Shown here one piece after another: positions 1,952 through 25,555 of a stretch of DNA of 64,000 nucleotides. Source of the stretch: a virus. Both the position numbers and the translations under genes were made by a program. The notes beneath the pieces were generated by a model. It made no database searches and was not told the DNA's origin. It was given only the letters and a program-made list of their open reading frames with translations. The stretch's first letter is position 1. Each line of letters starts with the position of its first letter. The DNA lies in the IMG/VR virus record IMGVR_UViG_3300012147_000006, positions 78,156-142,155 of that record, one strand, 5' to 3'.

Positions 1952-2530
1952 TTAATAGTTCTGTATCTGTGTTAGTGCATACTTTTCGGTGTATCTTCCG
2001 TTGTTGTGTTCGTTACAACATTTTCCACAAGCACTAATTCTTTTCTTCTTTTTGTGACTCGCACTTTTTTTCCCGCATCCATTTTCACAAACTAATGTGT
2101 ATTTACTTTGAGTGTCGCTAATGTCCTCCGACTTGTAGCATCTTTCTGCGGTGCAAAGTACTTTTCTTGCTATTGCTTTCCACACGTTGTTGTGGTGGTT
2201 TCTTCCTCCCATTGCTCCATCAAGTGCGTGCGCTAATTCGTGACGCAATGTGTTTTCAAATTCTAATCCTTTGCTTAAGTTTTGAGTTACCAAATACTTT
2301 GAAAGGTAAATCGTTTTGTTTCTGTAATTACAAAGACCTGCTGCTCTTTTTCTTGAATTATACTCAAACTTCCACCCCAATTCTTTTAAGTTAATAACAC
2401 TTGCTTCTTTGAAACTGTAAATATCAATTGTCCAAATCGTTGCAAGTAATCTGTTTGCTAATCTTTCAAGTTCTCCAAGGGTTGTCTTACAGTTTTCCTC
2501 GAAGTGCATTTCTTTTGTTAAGTCTTTCAT
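1952..2530 (-). CDS. SprT-like zinc metalloprotease
   Basis: RAAGLC, HELAH, H..W motifs and C-terminal Cys zinc ribbon. Confidence 0.85.
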   Translation of the reverse strand: MKDLTKEMHFEENCKTTLGELERLANRLLATIWTIDIYSFKEASVINLKELGWKFEYNSRKRAAGLCNYRNKTIYLSKYLVTQNLSKGLEFENTLRHELAHALDGAMGGRNHHNNVWKAIARKVLCTAERCYKSEDISDTQSKYTLVCENGCGKKSASHKKKKRISACGKCCNEHNNGRYTEKYALTQIQNY

Positions 2531-3475: not shown

Positions 3476-3718
3476 TTACAAAACGTTTGCAAGGTTTGTG
3501 AAATATGCAAAATCAATTAACATCATTTCTTTTTGTGCCACGGGGAGAGTTGCAAAATTTGGTGAGCAAATCATATCGCCCAAGGCTTGCATTTTTTGTA
3601 TTGTCTGAGCTTGTAAGTGACCCGTAGGCATTTCGCCCATTTGTTGAGGTTGGGGAGAGTTTTGTCCTTCTAACTCTTCTGCTTGTCTTTTTGACGGTGT
3701 GTTGAATCCTATTGCCAT
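3476..3718 (-). CDS. hypothetical protein
   Basis: E1 promoter; stop inside next promoter. Confidence 0.7.
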   Translation of the reverse strand: MAIGFNTPSKRQAEELEGQNSPQPQQMGEMPTGHLQAQTIQKMQALGDMICSPNFATLPVAQKEMMLIDFAYFTNLANVL

Positions 3719-5267: not shown

Positions 5268-5269
5268 CC

Positions 5270-6050
5270 CCCTACCCTGTTTAAGCCCCTTACAGATAGG
5301 CTCTTATTTAAGGGGTCTATTTAAGGCTCGGAAGGAAAATAAGCCCCTAAAAAAGCCGCCCCTCCATAGGGGGTCCAAGACCTCTCACGAATTTTTCCCC
5401 ATTTTTTTTACAATATTCTCAACCAACGTATATTCCCTATCATACGCATTGTTGCTCCAGGTTTATTATTATTTTTCTCAACCAATCCCGTCAAGGACAA
5501 AATGTCCTATAGAATGTCTTTGAGAATTGTGAATATAAGCTATATTGCTTATAAAGGACAATATAAGCTCCTGGGCTTATAATACGTTCGGAATGACCAT
5601 CGGAATTTTCTTAATACTTATTTGCCGCATCCTTTACTGCGATTAGGATAGCTAACTGCCGTAACGTTCGGAATAAATAGTTCTTTCATCATGACGAGGA
5701 AAAGTTTTCTCTTTGTTAATAAGTCAATCCTTAAAAATTTTTTCCCAAATTTTTTAAGCTAATTTCTGGACCAATTACGCTCGGAATGACCATCGGAATC
5801 TCTCTGAGAAAAAACCTCTACACAACACTGATAGCAAAGCTTTAACGAGCGGAATGACCATCGGAATTATTTGCCGCATAAAGCGCTGCGATTAGGTGTT
5901 CTATTTGCCGCACTCAAAGATATTGTTCATTCGTCATGACGAACAAGAAACTTTCTCTGGGGGGTAGGGGGTCCGTATAAGGGGGTGCCCCTTTTTCCTA
6001 TGGACTTACAAAAAGTGAATCCTTAAAAATTTTTTCCCAAATTTTTTATT
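5270..6050. repeat. non-coding repeat-rich island (candidate origin, terminus or packaging/injection signal)
   Basis: CGGAATGACCATCGGAAT x3 (5589, 5782, 5850); TATTTGCCGCA x3; CTGCGATTAGG x2; ~31-bp AATCCTTAAAAATTTTTTCCCAAATTTTTTA x2; G/C runs. Confidence 0.75.
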
Positions 6051-6068
6051 GTAAATTTTGGGAACAAG

Positions 6069-6237
6069 TTAACAGTGGTCTTTGAATAGTTTCTTCATTC
6101 TATGTATGTGAGAAATGACAAGACACTTATATGCAAGGTGCAGCAACGAAGTTTCTGATAGGCCCATCTTTTTTCTCTTCAAATGTTCGAGTATATTCTT
6201 CGTACTTAAATTCCCAGAGTTCTATATCTTCATTCAT
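6069..6237 (-). pseudogene. C-terminal [HY]C family member, +1 frameshift in A6 run
   Basis: MNEDIELWE...EEK/KMGLSETSLLHLAYKCLVISHIHRMKKLFKDHC; aligns with 6237-6425. Confidence 0.7.
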
Positions 6238-6425
6238 TAGCAGTAATCTTGTATTATTTTTTCACGCCTACACCTGACAGCCAAATCCAGGAAACGATAA
6301 GCTCTAACGAGTTCATGAGTACCTGTGCTGAGGCCCCAGAAATGGACTTCAGTTTCATAATCTCCTATTGATTGGTTGCACCTGGTTTCCCACTTAATTA
6401 TTTCTTCTCTTGTAATCTTACTCAC
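6237..6425 (-). CDS. C-terminal [HY]C family protein
   Basis: ends REKIIQDYC. Confidence 0.75.
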   Translation of the reverse strand: MSKITREEIIKWETRCNQSIGDYETEVHFWGLSTGTHELVRAYRFLDLAVRCRREKIIQDYC

Positions 6426-6603
6426 AGTGTTTTCTATATATTTTATGGTAATGCAATTTAATAATCCAATAGTGAGACTCCTCTTGTTTGTCTTCTCCCA
6501 TGATTCTTAAATTACTTTCCATTAGATTCAACAATTGCTCCAGCGTCAAACCTTGTTGCTTGAGAACTCCATTGACTTCTTCTTTTGTTAGGTTATTTAT
6601 CAC
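6418..6603 (-). CDS. C-terminal [HY]C family protein
   Basis: ends HKIYRKHCE. Confidence 0.75.
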   Translation of the reverse strand: MINNLTKEEVNGVLKQQGLTLEQLLNLMESNLRIMGEDKQEESHYWIIKLHYHKIYRKHCE

Positions 6604-6832
6604 AATGCTTCAATTTAATTAACATCATCCTATATTCAATTGAATTTGTTACACAGAAGAGTGCGGTTTCTTCCCACCCTCTCTTGGAGCCAAGTCTATT
6701 CTGAACTGAACCGTCACTTCTAATGTGACTTACATATCCGCAATCCATAGCCTTGCAGTACTTAACATAATCAAGGTCATAAATTTTGGTCCTATATTCC
6801 AATTCGTTTATATCATTTCTAAAATCATCCAC
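6593..6832 (-). CDS. C-terminal [HY]C family protein
   Basis: ends IKLKHCDK. Confidence 0.75.
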   Translation of the reverse strand: MDDFRNDINELEYRTKIYDLDYVKYCKAMDCGYVSHIRSDGSVQNRLGSKRGWEETALFCVTNSIEYRMMLIKLKHCDK

Positions 6833-7031
6833 AGTGGTCTTGTTTTATTTTTATCATTCTAAGTTGTATTACCTTAAATATTGAAAACACTGACATTTCA
6901 GCACATTCTTCATATGACATTTCAATGGTATTATCGTAGAGATTGTCTAAATATTCTTGATGGACGGTTTCCCAGTTAATAATTTGGTTCTCGGTGACCT
7001 TGCCTCCCCTCCTTCTTCTAATATTCGCCAT
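6825..7031 (-). CDS. C-terminal [HY]C family protein
   Basis: ends IKIKQDHCG. Confidence 0.75.
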   Translation of the reverse strand: MANIRRRRGGKVTENQIINWETVHQEYLDNLYDNTIEMSYEECAEMSVFSIFKVIQLRMIKIKQDHCG

Positions 7032-7275
7032 GGTCTCTAAGTATCTTTTTCATCCTGTAGTAAATTGATTTCATAAGTGCGTCACATGCTCTCCCAAGAG
7101 ATAACATGGAGTCTTTGTTGCATTCATAATTAATGTCGTAGTGACGAATGTTGTCCTCCAGGGAAAAAGTCTGTTCTATGATTTTTTCAGTAGAAGTAAC
7201 TTGGAAGTTTAAATATATAAGTTCTCCTTTTGGAGTTATAATCCCTGGCGGTATAAATTCTTTTCCTTTATGCAC
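7018..7275 (-). CDS. C-terminal [HY]C family protein (Cys to Gly variant)
   Basis: ends KKILRDHGEY. Confidence 0.7.
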   Translation of the reverse strand: MHKGKEFIPPGIITPKGELIYLNFQVTSTEKIIEQTFSLEDNIRHYDINYECNKDSMLSLGRACDALMKSIYYRMKKILRDHGEY

Positions 7276-7558
7276 AGTGTTTTTTTAAAATTAATAAATT
7301 CATGTAATACAAATATTTCTCCAGGTGATACATGGTAAACTCATCTTTATACTCTCCTTGTTTAAAGTAAGCATCTGAATATCTCTTATGAGATTCAACA
7401 TTATTCTCAATGCTATCCTTGGTATCAATAAAAATGTCCCTCATATGAATGGGTGGCATTCTAAGCGATTTCCTCAAACTTGCAAGAAACCGTTCCATAT
7501 CCTCATCGCTAACTGTATTTGGATACACGACAAACGTTCTTTTATTATCCTTACTCAC
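7268..7558 (-). CDS. C-terminal [HY]C family protein
   Basis: ends LILKKHCA. Confidence 0.75.
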   Translation of the reverse strand: MSKDNKRTFVVYPNTVSDEDMERFLASLRKSLRMPPIHMRDIFIDTKDSIENNVESHKRYSDAYFKQGEYKDEFTMYHLEKYLYYMNLLILKKHCA

Positions 7559-7646
7559 AATGCTTCTCTTTTATGTTATAGTGCATTAGGTGGATGCATT
7601 TCTTGGGCTTGAACTCGTTGGGGTCATATATATTCTGTTCACTCAC
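7551..7646 (-). CDS. 31-aa C-terminal [HY]C family protein
   Basis: Not in track: MSEQNIYDPNEFKPKKCIHLMHYNIKEKHCE; coupled on both sides. Confidence 0.65.
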   Translation of the reverse strand: MSEQNIYDPNEFKPKKCIHLMHYNIKEKHCE

Positions 7647-7977
7647 AGTAGTCCTTTCTTATTTTCTTCTCCATCACAGTCAAGAGGTTTGCCAGAATAT
7701 CTTTCCTAAGAAAGTCTGGAATATCTGTATCAAGCATTGACTTCATCTTCTCTACTCTTCCCTCCAGAGAAAGAGTGCTAAGTTCAATTGTTTTTGTTTT
7801 AGCTATTTCCTTATCAATTTCTTTTTTAAGAATGCTTGTGAGAGCTGCTTCTATGTCAATGCCATACAGTTCCAACAGCTCTCTTGTTTCTTGTGAAACA
7901 GGCTTAATTGAGAACTCGGTGCCATGGAATTCATAGGTGTATTCTTCTGTTGGCAATTTTATCTCTTCTTTTGTCAT
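7639..7977 (-). CDS. C-terminal [HY]C family protein
   Basis: ends KKIRKDYCE. Confidence 0.75.
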   Translation of the reverse strand: MTKEEIKLPTEEYTYEFHGTEFSIKPVSQETRELLELYGIDIEAALTSILKKEIDKEIAKTKTIELSTLSLEGRVEKMKSMLDTDIPDFLRKDILANLLTVMEKKIRKDYCE

Positions 7978-8240
7978 TAGCAGTGGTCTATTTTTATTTT
8001 CTTCATCATAACTCCTATTATTGTATCGAGCGTCAATAATTTTTCTGTAATTGTTCGCTCATGCGTAATTCTCTCCTTAAGATTTGTTAGCTGCGTGCTT
8101 ATGCTAATTGTTGAAAGTCCTGCTATTTGCATCATCTCATTGAATGCTTCGGCTCCCATATTTTCTCCGTCAACCACAAATCCCACAATATTGGTACCAG
8201 TCTGGTTCCAGACAATCTCTGTTTTATTCGATTCGTTCAT
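7977..8240 (-). CDS. C-terminal [HY]C family protein, first gene of array
   Basis: ends KKIKIDHC. Confidence 0.75.
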   Translation of the reverse strand: MNESNKTEIVWNQTGTNIVGFVVDGENMGAEAFNEMMQIAGLSTISISTQLTNLKERITHERTITEKLLTLDTIIGVMMKKIKIDHC

Positions 8241-8245
8241 GTGCT

Positions 8246-8276
8246 CAAAGTTATGAAAAAATGGTCAATTTTCAAA
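8246..8276 (-). promoter_or_regulatory. Bacteroidota primary-sigma promoter TTTG-N19-TAACTTTG
   Basis: Matches -33/-7 consensus; similar sites at 11748-11779, 20800-20807, 47384-47391, 53897-53927. Confidence 0.7.
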
Positions 8277-8327
8277 AAGAATGTATATTTATTAAATATA
8301 ACAAAACAACACAAAAACAAAACAATT

Positions 8328-8549
8328 ATGGCATTACCAGGAGTATCATTTAAGGAATTCGTAAAGAATCCGATAGTGGCATTACTCTTCATGTCCCTAA
8401 TGGCGGTGGGTTACCTTTATTACGATAATAAGAGTACCTTAACGTCACAAGTGGAGACATTGCAAGAGGACATTAAAACCCTCAAAGAGGATTACAAAGA
8501 ATTAAACGAGAAGTTCATTGAGTCACTCAAAGAGCTTCACAATCACTAA
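8328..8549 (+). CDS. single-TM coiled-coil protein (holin-like)
   Basis: Likely start MALPG at 8328; TM segment then coiled coil. Confidence 0.55.
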   Translation: MALPGVSFKEFVKNPIVALLFMSLMAVGYLYYDNKSTLTSQVETLQEDIKTLKEDYKELNEKFIESLKELHNH

Positions 8550-8554
8550 AAAAT

Positions 8555-9115
8555 ATGAAAAAAGAATATAAGAAAGCTATATTAATAGCGGTATCAGGAT
8601 TGGCGCTGATGTTCATGGTTAAAATGTGCAAGTCAGAAGATTTCACAAAGATTTACCAGAAGGATAAGGAGGATATAAAAAAGTTAGGAGAGTTGCAGCA
8701 CGAGAGCGACAGCTTGCTAACAGAGATGCTTCATGACCTTGATACCAGGAGAAATATGTACAGCAGTGAGATTGACAGCTTGAACAACATCGTCCTAAAC
8801 GATAACCTTACAGTAGAAGAGGTTGAGAAACTTAAAAAGAAAGTGAAAGATGCGCAGAAGCTATTGAAGGATGCTCAAGATGCCAAGGGTGTTATTATAA
8901 TTGACGCTGGCATGACGATTAGCGAAATAGTTCTTGACTCAATTATTTACAACTATATTTACAAAGATTCTGTACAGTGGAATATTGTTGAGAAAGACTC
9001 TATTGTATACAACATAGTCCACAAAGACACTGTGATTGACAGGAAAGTTTATAAAATAGACACTGTTTACTATGACGGTGATGACGTTAAGAAGCTGAAG
9101 CTTAAAAACGATTAA
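8555..9115 (+). CDS. membrane-anchored coiled-coil protein (spanin-like)
   Basis: N-terminal TM, coiled coil, (K)DS/DT-I-V-Y repeats. Confidence 0.5.
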   Translation: MKKEYKKAILIAVSGLALMFMVKMCKSEDFTKIYQKDKEDIKKLGELQHESDSLLTEMLHDLDTRRNMYSSEIDSLNNIVLNDNLTVEEVEKLKKKVKDAQKLLKDAQDAKGVIIIDAGMTISEIVLDSIIYNYIYKDSVQWNIVEKDSIVYNIVHKDTVIDRKVYKIDTVYYDGDDVKKLKLKND

Positions 9116-9141
9116 GAGGTCAAAAAATTTTTACGTAAAAA

Positions 9142-9172
9142 CGGTCATTCTAAATTTAGAGTGACTTTTTTT
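9142..9172. terminator. bidirectional terminator
   Basis: GTCATTCTAAA/TTTAGAGTGAC stem between convergent genes. Confidence 0.55.
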
Positions 9173-9175
9173 ATT

Positions 9176-9618
9176 TTAGACCTTTGACATTACCCAGCTG
9201 CTATTTTCCCATTTGCCAGCGCCATAATATTTAACATTACCACCACACTTAGGGCAAGGATTGTGAGCCCACATATCACTTTGCATTCCTATCGCTTCGC
9301 AGTTACCGCATCTGTTGACTTTTGTAAATGTTCCTCTATAGTATGTGATGCCAGGTTTAACATGCTCAACTTTCTTCTTTGGTGGAGTTGGCATTGTGCC
9401 TTCTTTAATTATCCTTGATGGTGGCGGAGGTGGTGGAGCAACTCTACCTTTGATTACCTTTTTGATTGCACCTCCTTCATCACGAATAAATTCATTAATG
9501 TTAAACTTGGGTTCTTCCTTAATTTTTTCTCTGGCTTTAATCTTGGCAATAGCCTTAGACTTAATTCCGATTATGTATCCAATTGCAAATGCAATCACTG
9601 CTATAAAAAATATCCCAT
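9176..9618 (-). CDS. membrane protein with polyproline and CxxC/CPxC zinc finger (apparent frameshift near start)
   Basis: Track ORF 9176-9598; coupled ATG at 9618 is out of frame across a T6 run. Confidence 0.6.
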
Positions 9619-9854
9619 TATTTAAAGTCTATGTGAAATGTAACATCTGTTGTATCGTTGTTATGCATTTCGTAAATATAAGTTGTATCTCCTTCTGCGG
9701 AAATCTCAAGTGTTGGCTCCATTGGACTGTCGAGTCTTGTTGATAGCTTGGTTACGTGTATTGCGTTAATTACGATTACCAGAAGTATCATCCCAAGGAT
9801 TCCTGGGAGTATCTTTAGAAAGTAATCTAAAAAGCTATTGTGTGGTTCTTTCAT
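9618..9854 (-). CDS. small membrane protein
   Basis: TM segment. Confidence 0.65.
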   Translation of the reverse strand: MKEPHNSFLDYFLKILPGILGMILLVIVINAIHVTKLSTRLDSPMEPTLEISAEGDTTYIYEMHNNDTTDVTFHIDFK

Positions 9855-10378
9855 ATATTAATTGGCGCTTTGGTGCTGTTTACAATCTCCTGGAGCCACG
9901 TTCTCTTCTCTTCGGCAATATCTCTTAGATTTTTCATAACGATGTCTGTAAGGACTTCTTTTTTGATTCTCTCGTAGAAGTTTTTCCCCTCTACATTATC
10001 CCAAGCTTTCTTTTCATCATCACGAAGTTTAGCGGCTCTATCGTATTCTTGGGCTACTATCATTTCGCCTTTCTCCTCTTTGATTCTGATGAGTTCAGCA
10101 ATACCGCAATCTTTAGATATTTCTTGATACTTTTCATTAGCAACGCTCTTCACTTCTTCAGATAAACCTCCTGCTCCGAATCTTTTAGTCAATTTTTCAC
10201 CAGACACAAGTTGAATTGTGAATTGTACGTGAACGGTTTTCTTTTTTGGATTGATGATGTCTTTTGTTATATCTAAAAAAGATTTTGTCTCCAATTCTGG
10301 AATATACTCCTCCAATTCTGAAATCGTCTCAATGTATTCAGCTGTAAATATTTTATCATCTAATCTTAGTGTTGTCAT
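9851..10378 (-). CDS. protein with UvrB/C (UVR) motif
   Basis: QEYDRAAKLRD. Confidence 0.65.
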   Translation of the reverse strand: MTTLRLDDKIFTAEYIETISELEEYIPELETKSFLDITKDIINPKKKTVHVQFTIQLVSGEKLTKRFGAGGLSEEVKSVANEKYQEISKDCGIAELIRIKEEKGEMIVAQEYDRAAKLRDDEKKAWDNVEGKNFYERIKKEVLTDIVMKNLRDIAEEKRTWLQEIVNSTKAPINI

Positions 10379-10707
10379 TATATTTTATTTAAAGTATCTG
10401 TAACAATGTCAAGCGCTGCAGGGCGAGTGCTTCCTTTTCTGTCAAGGTCTCCTTCTGTGATTCCTTTTCCCTTGTATTTTTCGAACAAAGCAGAGATGTC
10501 AGCCATGAAATCTCTGAAGTGAATGTTTACCTCTGTAATACTTTCTGACTCAACATAGAATCTAAGTTCGTAATTGCTTTCAGTGATGCCGTAGCCGTTT
10601 TTAATTCTAAGAATGGCAGCGTCAACCTGTTCAGCATCTTGGTATTCCAGGAGCCTTTTATATTCACGATGTTCTCTGGTTTTCTCCAAAAATTCTTCTT
10701 CGTTCAT
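10378..10707 (-). CDS. hypothetical protein
   Basis: coupled ORF. Confidence 0.65.
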   Translation of the reverse strand: MNEEEFLEKTREHREYKRLLEYQDAEQVDAAILRIKNGYGITESNYELRFYVESESITEVNIHFRDFMADISALFEKYKGKGITEGDLDRKGSTRPAALDIVTDTLNKI

Positions 10708-10708
10708 C

Positions 10709-10961
10709 TTAGTATTTTTTAATCATTGGATGCTCAATTACTTTGACAAATTCTTTCTTTGTCAAGTATATGGATTCGATTATTTTTGTCGAGGAGGGCA
10801 GATTTATCTGTATCAGTGTATTCATATAAGACAGAGCCTCCGCCACAACCGCCAACTTCGTATCTATAACTACGCCATCCAAAGAAAGTTTTCCTCTGGA
10901 TGGTGTAATCATGTTTTTCTCCATGTTGGACGAATCTTATATTTAAGACAAGTCTTCCCAC
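10709..10961 (-). pseudogene. single gene frameshifted at A5 run (10783-10787)
   Basis: MGRLVL...SALLDK joins IIESIYL...MIKKY; the track shows it as two overlapping ORFs. Confidence 0.55.
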
Positions 10962-11717
10962 TTAGAAGTGTATTTTACCAGTTCTTGTGTGGAAGTTGTA
11001 TAGCTTAACAAGCTCATTGACCATGTCTCCAACTTTAGATTGTTCACGAACGATACCTGAGTTAAGTTTAAGCTTGGTAGTCATTTTCTCATGAACATAG
11101 TTAGGGTGCATATAAAGTTTAAGCATTGCCTTAACAAACTTTTCTTTCTTAGCGAAATCATAGTAATTTTCGAAGATAGCCATGTGAGTAAAGAAATCGT
11201 CAATGTCGATGTCTTCTCTAAATTCGAAAGAACCTTGTTTAATGTTGTGTGAGTGAGAACGTGCGTTCTTTGAGATTTTACCGAATGCACCAACTACAGA
11301 AATTCTCTGGTCGTATTTAGCACAAAGGTCTAAAAGCATGATGTAAGAGTCTTTCCCTCTCTTAGCATAGTGACGAGCATAATCCATAGCGTTCCAGTTC
11401 TTAGCAGCTCTGTTGATGTCTGCAGCAGCATAGATATGAATATCTTCTGATACGATGAAATGAATTGGAAGGCCAAGCTCTTTACATGCAAGGTATCTGT
11501 TTTGTCCATCGACAATCTCCATTTGCTTGTTAACAAGGATTGGTTGATATTGAGTATAATCGTTTGCTTCGATTGACTCTTTAACTTTTTTGTAGTGAGA
11601 CGGGTCTCTGTTGAATTCGCTTAGTACGAACTTTTCATACTGTGTAGAAATCCAGATTTTAATGTCGGACATCTTTGCGAATGCTGCATCTTGTGCAGTA
11701 TCATTTTTCGTTTCCAT
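10962..11717 (-). CDS. ParB/Sulfiredoxin-like N-terminal domain protein
   Basis: QPILVN..IVDGQNRY.A motif. Confidence 0.75.
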   Translation of the reverse strand: METKNDTAQDAAFAKMSDIKIWISTQYEKFVLSEFNRDPSHYKKVKESIEANDYTQYQPILVNKQMEIVDGQNRYLACKELGLPIHFIVSEDIHIYAAADINRAAKNWNAMDYARHYAKRGKDSYIMLLDLCAKYDQRISVVGAFGKISKNARSHSHNIKQGSFEFREDIDIDDFFTHMAIFENYYDFAKKEKFVKAMLKLYMHPNYVHEKMTTKLKLNSGIVREQSKVGDMVNELVKLYNFHTRTGKIHF

Positions 11718-11781
11718 AAATTTTTGTTTTGTAATTAAATTAGACTACAAATCTATAGAAACTTTTTAACCCTTGCAAATT

Positions 11782-11991
11782 TTAAATGCAATATTTGCTC
11801 ATTATTAGCTGAATTTGTCTATCTATAAGGTATTTTTGAGCCTTTATTCTTATTAGATTGAGCGATTGATATTCGTCAGTCTCATAAAAGTCAACAATAT
11901 TTTCGAGGTACCTCTCAATATCTCGTTCGGCTGCTCCAACTATGTAGTATATTTCTCCGTTGTGGATAAAACACGCATCTTCCTTGCTCAT
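11782..11991 (-). CDS. C-terminal [HY]C family protein (dispersed)
   Basis: ends LIMSKYCI. Confidence 0.6.
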   Translation of the reverse strand: MSKEDACFIHNGEIYYIVGAAERDIERYLENIVDFYETDEYQSLNLIRIKAQKYLIDRQIQLIMSKYCI

Positions 11992-12142
11992 CTATTTGCT
12001 TATTATAAGTCTTAATAATAAATATACAATAAATAAGAAGAAATTTAATTAGAATATTTTTAAATTTAATTAATGGTGAAAAAATTTTGTCGGAATCCGC
12101 CTGTCGGCAATGACTGTGCGATGAAAAAATTGTATTATTTTT

Positions 12143-12472
12143 TTATAGAAATTTCTTTAAAAAACAAATTCTTTCCTGCTCTAACTTAATGCCTCTTTCT
12201 TTAGAGTCAATATATTTTTGAATATCTTCTTTGCTTATTTCTTGAAAACACGGGTAGTTTTGATTTTTCACCAGTTTCATTTCACGTTCTAATTCTCCTA
12301 AGTTGTGTTTAGAACTATTTGTGAAGTTAGTTAACTTGCATAGATAAACGCCAGAAAACTTTCCTGGATAGGATTCTATCAATTCACCAGTGTCCTTAAT
12401 GAATTCTACAATGAAGTCGCCCATTTGGTAAAACTTACTTGGTTCAAGTTCTTTTCCGCTAAAGTGCTTCAT
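12143..12472 (-). CDS. hypothetical protein
   Basis: ORF. Confidence 0.65.
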   Translation of the reverse strand: MKHFSGKELEPSKFYQMGDFIVEFIKDTGELIESYPGKFSGVYLCKLTNFTNSSKHNLGELEREMKLVKNQNYPCFQEISKEDIQKYIDSKERGIKLEQERICFLKKFL

Positions 12473-12474
12473 AA

Positions 12475-12924
12475 TTAATCCATTCCATCTACATCATCTT
12501 GAGTAATCTCAAGACAATCAAATTTATCCATGCAATCCTCAAGAATTACATGCAAGAAAGAGCTGTTGTTTCTTGGAGACAAACCTCTTAACATGGTGTG
12601 TCCATTCTTGTTTTTGTACTTCCACACTGGGATGTTCCACTTCTTATAACCTGCATCATCATTTTTTGCCCAGCTATCATCATAAGTTTCGAACATATCA
12701 ATTCTAAGATTTTTGTCTCCGCCAAATCCTGCTCCAAGTCTATTGAATCCTTTCGGCATTCCAAGAAAAAACTTACCTATGCCAACTGCTGCAGTTCCAG
12801 CTCTGTGATTTCCACAAGCTGAACTTAATCCTTCGTCATCTTTCTTGAAGCATGTAATGTCGCTTCCAGCCATGCATCCTGGGCACTGGTATTCTTCGAT
12901 TGCGTCTTTAACGTTATCTTTCAT
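12475..12924 (-). CDS. Cys-containing hypothetical protein
   Basis: Start reassigned to MKDNVK to avoid overlap; YQCPGC motif. Confidence 0.7.
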   Translation of the reverse strand: MKDNVKDAIEEYQCPGCMAGSDITCFKKDDEGLSSACGNHRAGTAAVGIGKFFLGMPKGFNRLGAGFGGDKNLRIDMFETYDDSWAKNDDAGYKKWNIPVWKYKNKNGHTMLRGLSPRNNSSFLHVILEDCMDKFDCLEITQDDVDGMD

Positions 12925-12926
12925 GT

Positions 12927-13229
12927 TTAGTGTTCTAAAAATTCGTAAACTTCTGTGACTGTATCCCAAACGTCTTGGCCAATAACTTCACAGTATTGTT
13001 CGTGAGTAAACCCAAGTTGCTTAAGGATTTCGTTTTGAATGTCAGTGCTTACTTCAGACTCAGCTTCTCCACGACCAGTTTCTCGATAAGCATCTTGCTC
13101 GTCTTCATACTCGTCTTCCCAATCTTCATCAAGATAATTATAGATTGCCTCTTCAACTAAATGCTGAAGGACACTTTCTTCATATTCTTTTCTCAAAAAT
13201 TCGATTACTGATTCTTTAGTAGCTTCCAT
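12927..13229 (-). CDS. acidic hypothetical protein
   Basis: E2 promoter upstream. Confidence 0.7.
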   Translation of the reverse strand: MEATKESVIEFLRKEYEESVLQHLVEEAIYNYLDEDWEDEYEDEQDAYRETGRGEAESEVSTDIQNEILKQLGFTHEQYCEVIGQDVWDTVTEVYEFLEH

Positions 13230-13275
13230 ACTTAGGTTATACGATAAATAAAAGAAAGTGTTCTATTTATCTCGA

Positions 13276-13743
13276 CTAAGCTGTTTGTTTCCACTTGGTT
13301 GGAAACTTATAATCTTTTAAAAGCTCAAAAGCTTTCTCTGGAGTTATATAGCCATCAATTTTAACAAAGAACTCTCTCCAGTTCTCATCAGACTTTGCTC
13401 TCTTAGCGTTTTTAGCCTTCTCTTTCTTCTTCTTTTCTTCATCAAGAGAGACTACTGAAAATCCATCACCCATTTCTTCATCACAGACAGATTGGTCTTT
13501 TCTGTAAGAACTCCCATCAACTTCAAATCTAAAACCATCTATTGTAGTGTGGTATGTGCATGTGATATAGCACGAGCCTGTAGTCTCGTCATAGTCATCA
13601 TAACTTTCTCTTAGGCATTCTACTACCTCCTCGATAGTCATTTCTTCGCCCTCACCTTCTTCCTCTTGAAAGTATTCTGCAAACACTTTCTTAAGAACTA
13701 CCATTACATCACTTGGGATGTCTTCTATTTTATCAATATACAT
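13276..13743 (-). CDS. hypothetical protein
   Basis: ORF. Confidence 0.7.
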   Translation of the reverse strand: MYIDKIEDIPSDVMVVLKKVFAEYFQEEEGEGEEMTIEEVVECLRESYDDYDETTGSCYITCTYHTTIDGFRFEVDGSSYRKDQSVCDEEMGDGFSVVSLDEEKKKKEKAKNAKRAKSDENWREFFVKIDGYITPEKAFELLKDYKFPTKWKQTA

Positions 13744-13757
13744 AATTATTTATTTTT

Positions 13758-14009
13758 TTATGAGTCCATTACGTGGTCTGAACATAAGTTATAGTCAACG
13801 CAATCTTGGTTAGTTGTATCAACGGGTTGTCCGCAATAACATTTCTTTGGAACTTCTGAAGCTGGAACTGCGTCCAGGTGCTCCATTAGTTTTTCTTTAA
13901 ATTTTCTATATCCGTCAGCATTCTCAAACCCTTCTTCGTCCAAGCAGATACCTATTCCATAAAGGAAATCGTCTATGATTGTTTTCACGCTATATTTCTT
14001 GTGACCCAT
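13758..14009 (-). CDS. hypothetical zinc-finger protein
   Basis: CYCG...LCSDH. Confidence 0.55.
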   Translation of the reverse strand: MGHKKYSVKTIIDDFLYGIGICLDEEGFENADGYRKFKEKLMEHLDAVPASEVPKKCYCGQPVDTTNQDCVDYNLCSDHVMDS

Positions 14010-14052
14010 CTGGCCATCATAAGTGTTAACGTATTTCTTAAATTTTTATAAG

Positions 14053-14259
14053 TCAAAATTCTCCATCATCAAGTATATCTTTGTTGCTAACTTTTTCTTT
14101 TTCCCACCCCATTAATAATCGACCTATAATTGACACAACAAAACCTGCAGGTACAAGTGTGTATTTTAAGTCTGGCCTTCCAGTCATCATTGGAATAAAC
14201 ATTACAACGATTCCGATTACATAAAAAAAATATTGAGGCAATTTTATAAACCATATCAA
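14053..14259 (-). CDS. small two-TM protein
   Basis: hydrophobic segments. Confidence 0.55.
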   Translation of the reverse strand: MIWFIKLPQYFFYVIGIVVMFIPMMTGRPDLKYTLVPAGFVVSIIGRLLMGWEKEKVSNKDILDDGEF

Positions 14260-14585
14260 GCTTCTTTTCTTAGTTTTTCAGCAAATTCCTGGAGTTCGTT
14301 CCACTCTTTTTCATATACCTCTGGGTCTTCGTTATATTTTTCTTTTCTATTCTTAAGTCTCCAAGGAGTTATTGAATGCATGGACGTATTGTGGTAATCT
14401 AATTCAATTTCTTCAACCGTCTTTAGTATTTCCTCCTTTGTCTTCGCAAGCCTAAGAGTGAAGTGAATTTGATTCATAGCTGTCTTGGCGGCTTCGTTTT
14501 GTTCCTCTATGATTTTTTCAATCTCAACATCAAGTTCTTCAATGCTTGAGGAGTTGAGCTACTCTAAGTGTTCTTCCCAGTTCAT
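14256..14585 (-). pseudogene. ORF with in-frame TAG at codon 9 (14559-14561)
   Basis: MNWEEHLE*LNSSS... reads in frame into track ORF 14256-14477. Confidence 0.5.
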
Positions 14586-14586
14586 A

Positions 14587-14883
14587 TTATTGAATTGTAA
14601 AATCTACAACTTGTATTTCATCAACAGTGTTGTGCCATCTATTTTCTCTCTTGTCACATTTTCTCCACTTAAACTCTTCATAGTGCCTTAACATAACTTC
14701 ATGGTCTTCATCTTCTACTTCAAGTTTTCTATATTCTTCTTGGCGAGCTATCTCCATTTCAAAAATCCTTGTCGCTTCAGCAACTGCAGCTTCTTTATCT
14801 TTGAAGAGGTTTTTGTTGACTCCTCCACCTTCGTAGATGCAGCCTTGATGTATTCCGTATACAACGTCTTTATCTTCGCTCAT
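14587..14883 (-). CDS. hypothetical protein
   Basis: ORF. Confidence 0.65.
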   Translation of the reverse strand: MSEDKDVVYGIHQGCIYEGGGVNKNLFKDKEAAVAEATRIFEMEIARQEEYRKLEVEDEDHEVMLRHYEEFKWRKCDKRENRWHNTVDEIQVVDFTIQ

Positions 14884-15131
14884 ATTTACTCGCCATTTTG
14901 TTCGTTAATAAACTCTTCTCTAATTGCTACCAAAAGCTCCATTAACAATTTATTGGCCTCATCTGCTTTGTCAACCATTCCGAAGCTCATCATTATTTTG
15001 ATTCTTTCTTCCATTGTGGCAACCTGGAGCACAACTTTTTGCATACTTCTCCGACAAGGGCTTGGTGTGCTCGTATGACAATATTTGCATTAATTGTGTT
15101 GCTTTTTTCACTGCTCAAATTTAGTTAAAAT

Positions 15132-15368
15132 TTATTTATTTACCAAATGTATTTTAATGAACCTGGAAATTAACCCTGGAGTTACAGTTGGCATTCCAGT
15201 CGGAGGATTAACCCACTCAGGTTCTGAAATATATCTTTTTTCATACTTAAGTTTTTTATCCTTCCATATTTTAATAGTTGAAACTCCTTGATAGCCTCTT
15301 ATTACTGACCACGCCCATAAGTCGCCCCCATCTATCGTTATATTTCTGTGCTTCTTTTTCATATGCAA
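15132..15368 (-). CDS. hypothetical protein
   Basis: coupled ORF. Confidence 0.65.
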   Translation of the reverse strand: MHMKKKHRNITIDGGDLWAWSVIRGYQGVSTIKIWKDKKLKYEKRYISEPEWVNPPTGMPTVTPGLISRFIKIHLVNK

Positions 15369-15559
15369 TGTTTTATAAAAATTTCTCTAAACATTTCGTG
15401 GTAATTTCTTTCATACCCTTTAATCAAATAATTTACTTGATAATCTGAAAGCCCGTTGTTTACTATTATGCGCAAGTCTTTAGATGACAAGTGAACAAAT
15501 TTCTTGTTTCTGAGATGTTCTGGAAGTCTTCTTATTTTGTCTTCTTCTAACATTAGCAA
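15359..15559 (-). CDS. C-terminal [HY]C family protein (dispersed)
   Basis: ends IFIKHCI. Confidence 0.6.
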   Translation of the reverse strand: MLMLEEDKIRRLPEHLRNKKFVHLSSKDLRIIVNNGLSDYQVNYLIKGYERNYHEMFREIFIKHCI

Positions 15560-15780
15560 TATTTTTTTAAGATGTATTTATTTTTCTCCTCAATAGAAAA
15601 GATAAGACTTTGCCTTGTCATCCACAAACCTCTTTTTACAAAAGCTGTATTAGCAAACTTAGGGTCCTTAAGTCTTTCTGTTAAAATTTTATGCAATTGC
15701 TCCCCCGCTTTATCCCACTTCATTTTTCTTGCTCTTGTTTTCATTGCAGCGAAGGTACGAATAAATGAAAAAATTTCCAA
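15553..15780 (-). CDS. C-terminal [HY]C family protein (dispersed)
   Basis: ends YILKKYC; real start likely MKTRAR. Confidence 0.6.
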   Translation of the reverse strand: MEIFSFIRTFAAMKTRARKMKWDKAGEQLHKILTERLKDPKFANTAFVKRGLWMTRQSLIFSIEEKNKYILKKYC

Positions 15781-15863
15781 AAATAAAAACTATTTATTAA
15801 GACAACACAAAAATAGATGGAGCCTGAAGAAGACTACGATGACTATAACTGGTTTAACGAACA

Positions 15864-24634: not shown

Positions 24635-25555
24635 ATGGCTAATAAGTTTAATACACAAATATTTATAAATAAATCAACAAAAATTCATGGTGAATATTAT
24701 GACTACTCCTTGGTTGAGTATAAAAATTGTGATTCTAAAGTTAAAATAATATGCCCAAAGCATGGTAAGTTTGAGCAAATTCCTTACTTACATTATAAAA
24801 AAGGTAGTGGATGTATTAAATGTGCTGAAGAAAAAGTTGGAATGTCGTTTAGAAAGAGTGGTAAAGATTTTATCTCAGAAGCCAATAAAATACATAATTA
24901 TTTTTATGATTATTCTTTTGTAAAATATGATGGTGCTCGAAAAAACATAACAATAACCTGCTTAAAACATGGAGAATTTGACCAGACTCCAACTAATCAC
25001 TTAAAAGGAAAAGGTTGTAGGAAATGTTATAATGAAAAAATAAGAGACAGACTATTGATGACAACAGAAGAATTTACGTCAAGAGCTAAAATAATTCATG
25101 ATTATAAATTTGACTACTCATTGGTTAGCTATAACGGTGGTAGAAATAAAGTAAAAATAATATGCCCTATACACGGAGAGTTTGAACAGACTCCAGAAAA
25201 TCACCTTAGTAATCGTGGGTGCAGGAAATGTAGAAGTTCTAAAGGGGAAAAAGAAATAAGAAAAATTCTAAAAGAAAATGAGATTAATTTCAAAGAACAA
25301 CACACATTTGAATTGTGTAGGCATATAAACAAACTTCCTTTTGATTTCTATTTACCTGAACGTAATTTATGTATTGAATTTGATGGTAGACAGCATTTTG
25401 AGGTAATTGAATTTTATGGAGGACAAAAAGGCTTTGATTCTACAAAAATAAATGACCAAATCAAAAATGATTATTGCAAAAATAATGGAGTCACACTAAT
25501 TAGAATTAAGTATGACTCCATTATAAAAAAAGAGTTAAATAAAATTATTTCCTAA
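24635..25555 (+). mobile_element. free-standing homing endonuclease: 3x C.(K/I)HG.F zinc repeats (DUF723-like) plus Vsr/DUF559-like nuclease
   Basis: CPKHG/CLKHG/CPIHG repeats; SKGE, FDFYLP, IEFDG.QH. Confidence 0.8.

Follow-up and report, generated by a model that had tools for sequence, protein, structure and literature searches.

The Array and Its Dispersed Members

Ten overlapping minus-strand genes at positions 6069-8240, together with three further genes at 11782-15744, encode small proteins that share one C-terminal motif. They lie in the window, i.e., the whole 64,000-nucleotide stretch of DNA analyzed here, which is the final 64 kb of a 142,155-bp IMG/VR virus record with a completeness of 65% (CheckV). 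All ten open reading frames (ORFs) of the array are present with the endings given in the original prediction, and the three dispersed ORFs to which it had assigned similar tails are likewise real. The features are listed below in the direction of transcription, beginning with the array.

8246..8276, minus strand: TTTG-N19-TAACTTTG, a promoter motif of the Bacteroidota type, whose end is 5 nt from the member 1 ATG
7977..8240, minus strand: member 1, 87 aa, ending KKIKIDHC; its stop overlaps the following start (TAATG)
7639..7977, minus strand: member 2, 112 aa, ending KKIRKDYCE; a chimera
7551..7646, minus strand: member 3, 31 aa, ending NIKEKHCE; a deletion chimera
7268..7558, minus strand: member 4, 96 aa, ending LILKKHCA; its GTG start lies within the member 3 Cys codon
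7018..7275, minus strand: member 5, 85 aa, ending KKILRDHGEY; Gly replaces Cys, and CAT-G supplies the ATG of member 6
6825..7031, minus strand: member 6, 68 aa, ending IKIKQDHCG; modeled as a helical hairpin
6593..6832, minus strand: member 7, 79 aa, ending LIKLKHCDK
6418..6603, minus strand: member 8, 61 aa, ending KIYRKHCE
6237..6425, minus strand: member 9, 62 aa, ending EKIIQDYC; head paralogous with the member 6 head
6069..6237 (6127-6237 plus 6069-6182), minus strand: member 10, broken near 6180; the tail frame ends KKLFKDHC
15778..15811, minus strand: second promoter motif of the Bacteroidota type, preceding the dispersed pair
15553..15744, minus strand: dispersed member, 63 aa (ATG at 15744), ending YILKKYC; TAATG junction with the next member
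15359..15553, minus strand: dispersed member, 64 aa, ending EIFIKHCI
11782..11991, minus strand: dispersed member, 69 aa, ending LIMSKYCI

The gene at 11782 is uncoupled, since the next gene starts 62 nt downstream. Orthologues of member 5 end in DHCG and DHCE. The frameshift reported in member 10 was confirmed; two nucleotides are missing from a run of A (A6 in the window, A8 in relatives, where the gene is intact and encodes 56 aa), and because the identical break is found in three independent assemblies, member 10 is probably a real pseudogene. It sits at the end of the operon with no dependent gene downstream; its equivalent in the relative L006 lies at 3492-3662.

When the whole 142-kb record was searched with a regular expression and a 34-position tail HMM, the tail proved to be confined to window positions 6069-15789, always on the minus strand. 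A chance origin of the shared endings is excluded by the background rate, as [HY]C followed by 0-2 residues ends only ~0.6% of other stop-to-stop ORFs. A 210-aa ORF outside the window (record positions 13881-14513) ends in ERKYCL; this likeness is probably due to chance, given that the tail HMM misses the ORF.

Expression and Neighboring DNA

The host-type promoter motif proposed upstream of the array is present and is also kept in the relative L014. Its position, 5 nt from the ATG, implies a leaderless or very short-leader mRNA. The enrichment of the motif in the window is modest (13 matches vs. 7.1 expected). We infer early timing for the array, with a putative start site just upstream of member 1. 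With -8.6 kcal/mol and z 0.08, the hairpin that follows the last array gene, member 10, is too weak for us to call it a terminator.

Several features of the surrounding DNA are worth recording. Between the array and the cassette region, ~800 bp (window 5268-6068) hold G and C homopolymer runs and no convincing ORFs, and the equivalent in L006 and L014 is called as a 131-aa reverse-strand gene. A few kb downstream of the array, a gene for a SprT-like metalloprotease occupies the same position in three lineages (window 1952-2530; L006 6014-6592; L008 5464-6048; L014 7955-8533). On the other side, the products of two divergent genes upstream of the array (window 8337-9115, plus strand) have a hydrophobic segment at the N-terminus and, after it, a region resembling a coiled coil; no family match was obtained for them. 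Finally, a strong match to an HNH/homing endonuclease (window 24635-25555; phrog_559, E 8e-79) falls in the block of lowest GC content (30%) and is probably a mobile insertion.

Source Phage, Relatives, and Database Searches

A 257-kb ENA contig (ERZ27315593 k141_91308) and a Logan contig are identical to the window DNA (100% over 18 kb), and a 364-kb contig also records the array proteins of the window phage. The size of these two larger contigs, with their matching DNA and proteins, identifies the source as a large, uncultured phage. The contigs of its relatives are of marine metagenome origin. Two of these, L014 and L006, each carry ~20 array genes, 17 with the tail; a more distant lineage (L008-L013) has four. 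The host of the array-bearing phages is probably a member of the Bacteroidota. The “moraphages” are large aquatic phages of Bacteroidota (PMC12619734), and that paper may cover the array-bearing lineage, although no link to it was found.

The family has so far been found nowhere else. Among 1.84 billion representative proteins, a profile search returned seven matches, every one from the same phage group, and word-indexed protein searches added a few further members from that group only, the last such search yielding one extra variant of the same lineage. No match to the array region was found among cultured phages by blastn, and none was found in IMG/VR when scanned with members 2 and 4. Use of the neighboring 251-aa gene as an IMG/VR query recovered one distant contig, L001, in which no tail genes are present. 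The ESM Atlas gave no usable match for the family. For all 13 window members plus 10 proteins of relatives, no significant match was obtained in Pfam-A (best E 0.008) or PHROGs (best E 0.014), and in these scans no single family was matched by more than one member. A sequence-profile search of the PDB reached E 0.72 at best, and a literature search turned up no description of a Cys-tailed early phage family. No relatives beyond the phage group itself were thus found in Pfam, PHROGs, the PDB, or the 1.84-billion-protein search, in agreement with the initial impression that no described family could be recognized. Judged from their sequences, the Cys-tailed small proteins form a genuine family that is under selection and has no earlier description, with all members known to date coming from a single group of marine phages.

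The C-Terminal Module and Its Predicted Fold

An alignment of 25 distinct tails from the window and its relatives, anchored on the Cys, yields the motif A-x3-L-x3-I-x2-[RM]-x3-I-x2-[KD]-[HY]-C, followed by 0-2 residues. The conserved tag of ~8 residues that was first described must, therefore, be corrected to a module of ~21 residues. Its informative sites carry A at position -20 in 13 tails, L at -16 in 18, I at -12 in 19, and R or M at -9; an aliphatic residue (I/L/V) at -5, K/D/R at -2, and H/Y at -1 are present in all 25. The terminal Cys at position 0 is found in 22 of the 25 and is the sole Cys in 14 of 33 proteins. The hydrophobicity of the tail has a periodicity of 90-95 degrees per residue, placing the conserved stripe on one face of an alpha-helix. 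Over the last 13 residues, net charge is +1 to +4 in 32 of 33 tails and 0 in the remaining one; roughly two-thirds of the heads are net acidic.

An AlphaFold2 model of member 6, built with a family alignment of 28 sequences, is a helical hairpin with helices at residues 14-33 and 40-66 (mean pLDDT 79, pTM 0.59), in which the tail is predicted to be the end of helix 2. The proposal of a constant C-terminal helix thus stands with regard to its constancy, but not as a free appendage, since the tail ends helix 2 in this model. A single-sequence AlphaFold run on member 4 was uninformative (pLDDT 45), though it, too, predicted a terminal helix. With the hairpin model as query, Foldseek found nothing in the PDB at E <= 0.001, and its PDB and BFVD matches were only generic hairpins; the VIA-align matches (Z <= 6.9) were likewise all generic helical hairpins.

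The model bears directly on two alternative readings of the tail. First, the proteins may be plain divergent paralogues of one alpha-hairpin protein, whose C-terminal helix is simply the slowest-evolving core or homodimer interface, with neither a tag function nor a shared external partner. The stripe does fall on helix 2, some heads are demonstrably paralogous, and the generic structural matches (designed oligomers and ESAT-6/CFP-10) dimerize, as solitary helical hairpins usually do. However, conservation peaks over the final three residues, which lie outside the usual core, and the heads, discussed below, fit this reading poorly. A plain fold core or dimer interface is the main rival to a shared interaction helix; we regard it as possible, if on balance doubtful. 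Second, the tail could be an amphipathic membrane-targeting helix of the MinD or FtsA kind, through which the heads would reach the inner membrane. It is amphipathic and basic and lies at the extreme C-terminus, with the net charge given above. However, a helix of this kind would be short and terminal, with a bulky hydrophobic face and a flexible linker, whereas in the model the tail is continuous with a 27-residue helix that packs in the hairpin without such a linker. Moreover, the last eight residues are mostly charged and offer a single hydrophobic position, making membrane targeting quite improbable.

Selection on Protein Rather than DNA

In an operon of overlapping genes, the end of one gene is also the beginning of the next, and the tail might therefore be conserved as DNA. 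Such a reading would make the tail-coding sequence an A-rich initiation region plus the next start codon, or a recombination joint between cassettes. The original prediction had favored protein-level selection on the grounds of how the Cys codon is used at the gene junctions, and its description of these junctions holds: six junctions in the window use TGT+G as a GTG start, and TGC is found with TAATG or with no coupling. Across the tails, 10 of the 13 TGT Cys codons precede a G and thereby form the GTG start of the following gene. The remaining three TGT and all eight TGC codons (about 11 tails) have no start role, among them those of operon-final or uncoupled genes such as member 10, the gene at 11782, and the gene at L008 580-819.

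The preference for protein-level selection was supported by codon use, synonymous divergence, the uncoupled Cys residues, and a control with other coupled genes. Codons at conserved sites match genome usage and their third positions vary like those of the rest of the genome, e.g., TGT 13 and TGC 8 for Cys (genome 0.62/0.38), CAC 9 and CAT 8 for His, and ATA 12, ATT 7, and ATC 2 for Ile at -5. Over the last 20 codons, the member 5 alleles of three phage lineages differ by 0.75-0.93 at synonymous sites and by 0.13-0.19 at non-synonymous sites; in the tails of these old alleles, synonymous sites are thus saturated, and the residues persist. For the tail of member 2 orthologues, pN/pS is 0.10-0.25, compared with ~0.45 for the body; six synonymous changes fall within the tail.

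Against a DNA-level explanation, the motif is absent from 42 other coupled genes of the same genome, no conserved RNA structure is common to the junctions, the stripe reaches 60 nt upstream of the stop, and, as noted, the motif is kept where no gene follows. In its favor are the start-codon overlaps themselves, including those of both DHG variants, which create an ATG. One recombination event did occur inside tail-coding DNA, and coupled gene ends are somewhat A-rich (47% A vs. 40% for uncoupled ends in the genome), such that the abundance of Lys may in part reflect the A-rich sequence at which the next gene is initiated. Homogenization by gene conversion is also contradicted, given that orthologous tails are nearly identical between genomes and paralogous tails differ. 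Taken as a whole, the conserved stripe and the protein-level tests essentially exclude conservation at the nucleotide level, which we consider the least probable of the readings discussed.

With regard to the Cys itself, the idea of a fixed residue requires qualification: it is strongly preferred, but its loss from three of 25 tails means that it is not essential. Two of these three tails end in DHG-E, with an ATG built on CAT-G, and one in KKYT, with ACATGA; each loss is accompanied by a different start overlap. The Cys appears to be the primary constraint, to which the start codon adapts.

Heads and Array Turnover

The N-termini had been described as mostly unrelated, and their heterogeneity is borne out, although some heads are paralogous (members 6 and 9; L006 1532 and 2039) and others are chimeric. 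With the tails removed, phmmer connects only orthologues and two groups of paralogues, and head-only profile-profile comparison between subfamilies with hhalign gave no significant match (probability below 12%). By these measures, the heads of different subfamilies have no detectable relatedness, and some derive from genes outside the family. Both observations argue against the plain-paralogue reading, in which all heads would descend from one hairpin protein; most subfamilies lack head homology once the tail is removed, and tails occur on N-terminal parts taken from non-family genes.

How such combinations arise can be followed in the relatives. Aligned with L014 and L006, the window array is evidently a reduced version of theirs, produced through in-frame deletions. 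For example, member 3 is the product of a deletion of ~2.1 kb that removed six to seven genes and fused the first 48 nt (16 codons) of a 99-aa gene with the terminal 48 nt (16 codons) of one encoding 110 aa. Member 2 takes its first 36 codons from a non-family 133-aa gene and the rest from the member 2 lineage, with the crossover at ELLE, and the member 2 genes of L005 and L014 have another N-terminus from outside the family. In L006, where member 6 is absent, member 5 carries the member 6 tail, the product of a crossover within tail-coding DNA. Finally, member 1 of L014 (1088-1350) has an in-frame TAA after codon 39, with the remaining gene and tail intact, and looks recently inactivated.

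Since members have been lost, truncated, or frameshifted between close relatives, each must be individually dispensable. The in-frame chimeras may have been kept only to preserve coupling, allowing ribosomes to reach the downstream genes. In one tail-bearing L006 protein (P0015, encoded at 1013-1336), the first 42 residues show a weak resemblance to the N-terminus of phage head maturation proteases (phrog_207, E 0.001), and this head may be a captured gene fragment.

Functional Interpretation

The explanation that we favor is that the shared, selected C-terminal helix is the common interaction surface of a fast-evolving family of early phage proteins, whose heads carry the individual activities; for this explanation as a whole, we estimate a probability of about 0.5. 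Specifically, a lineage-specific family of small alpha-helical proteins is encoded in one translationally coupled operon behind a host-type promoter. An amphipathic, basic helix of ~21 residues, bearing the stripe A-20, L-16, I-12, R/M-9, and I-5 and the cap [KD]-[HY]-Cys, is kept at the protein level and, in minimal members, is predicted to form helix 2 of a hairpin. This helix may serve for mutual pairing or for docking to one shared partner, and the heterogeneous N-terminal parts may provide individual early-infection activities in host takeover or counter-defense. The array changes as genes are duplicated, as tail-coding DNA recombines internally, and as in-frame deletions arise, and the start overlap shapes the last codons only, through TGT-G giving GTG and through surrender of the Cys at sites where CAT-G or ACATGA furnishes an ATG. 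The sequences establish the family, its selection, its predicted hairpin, its turnover, and its restriction to the phage group; early timing, an interaction role, and the biological purpose are inferred. The tail is thus probably a shared docking or oligomerization helix on early host-takeover proteins.

A constant, exposed C-terminal ending on otherwise unrelated early proteins could also be a degradation or processing tag, read by a host or phage protease so that early proteins are cleared as later gene classes take over. The SprT-like metalloprotease gene (window 1952-2530), whose position a few kb from the array is conserved, is consistent with such a role. However, no Clp-type ATPase or protease genes were found in the 142-kb record, up to two residues are tolerated beyond the Cys, which is unusual for C-terminal degrons, and a structured helix of 21 residues exceeds what a degron needs. 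We consider this reading improbable and, like the membrane anchor, weaker than the plain fold core.

A stronger version of the favored interaction helix sees in the [KD]-[HY]-Cys cap and its helix a movable address label, which would bring a shifting set of early proteins to a single common partner, with the His/Tyr-Cys pair used chemically. We think this rather unlikely. If true, the partner would be a host complex or a phage enzyme, and the His/Tyr-Cys could be, for example, half of an intermolecular metal site that holds a tail to a second tail or to its target, or else a thiol group at which modification takes place. Alongside other Cys-tailed phage families, the array would then exemplify a general “tagged effector” strategy of large phages.

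Much of the genome of large phages consists of small early genes of unknown function, and here a constant, selected helix marks 13 to ~20 of them as one set. The tail, therefore, offers a single experimental handle for finding the binding partners of an early gene set. The array likewise illustrates clearly how dual coding occurs in nature, as the terminal Cys has pushed downstream genes onto GTG starts and yields only where an ATG start is made instead, and the relatives show base by base how in-frame deletions make new chimeric small proteins.

Comparison with Known Systems

Several known systems share one or more features with the array. With regard to other Cys-tailed proteins, a regular expression applied to all ORFs of the 142-kb record found no W-x-S-S-x-x-C ending, as seen in the Cys-tailed family of PHROG 899/4882. 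There is also no nucleotidyltransferase-like gene, nor any conserved enzyme gene, beside the array, the sole nucleotidyltransferase being a tRNA CCA-type enzyme 23 kb away. Likewise, no Pfam domains of RiPP modification enzymes (e.g., radical SAM, YcaO, or lanthipeptide synthetase) were found within 10 kb of the array in the window or its relatives.

The WXG100 proteins, including the ESAT-6/CFP-10 pair, are similarly helix-turn-helix hairpins of ~60-100 aa, encoded by side-by-side genes and bearing a functional C-terminal signal. Unlike WXG100 proteins, the members of the array have no Pfam match, and no W-x-G column is conserved in the family alignment; the structural likeness to ESAT-6/CFP-10 is generic only (VIA-align Z 5.8). 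No type VII secretion context is evident around the array, and Bacteroidota are not known to have a type VII secretion system.

A further parallel is with the hyperplastic early regions of T4-type phages, which likewise contain runs of small, individually dispensable early genes that are gained, lost, and fused by recombination at repeated boundaries. The T4-type cassettes are bounded by repeated promoter-stem-loop elements (PeSLs), whereas the repeated boundary in the present array is itself coding and selected as protein. In further contrast to the T4-type regions, the genes described here belong to one family with a common C-terminal helix, and they are linked to one another by overlapping stop and start codons.
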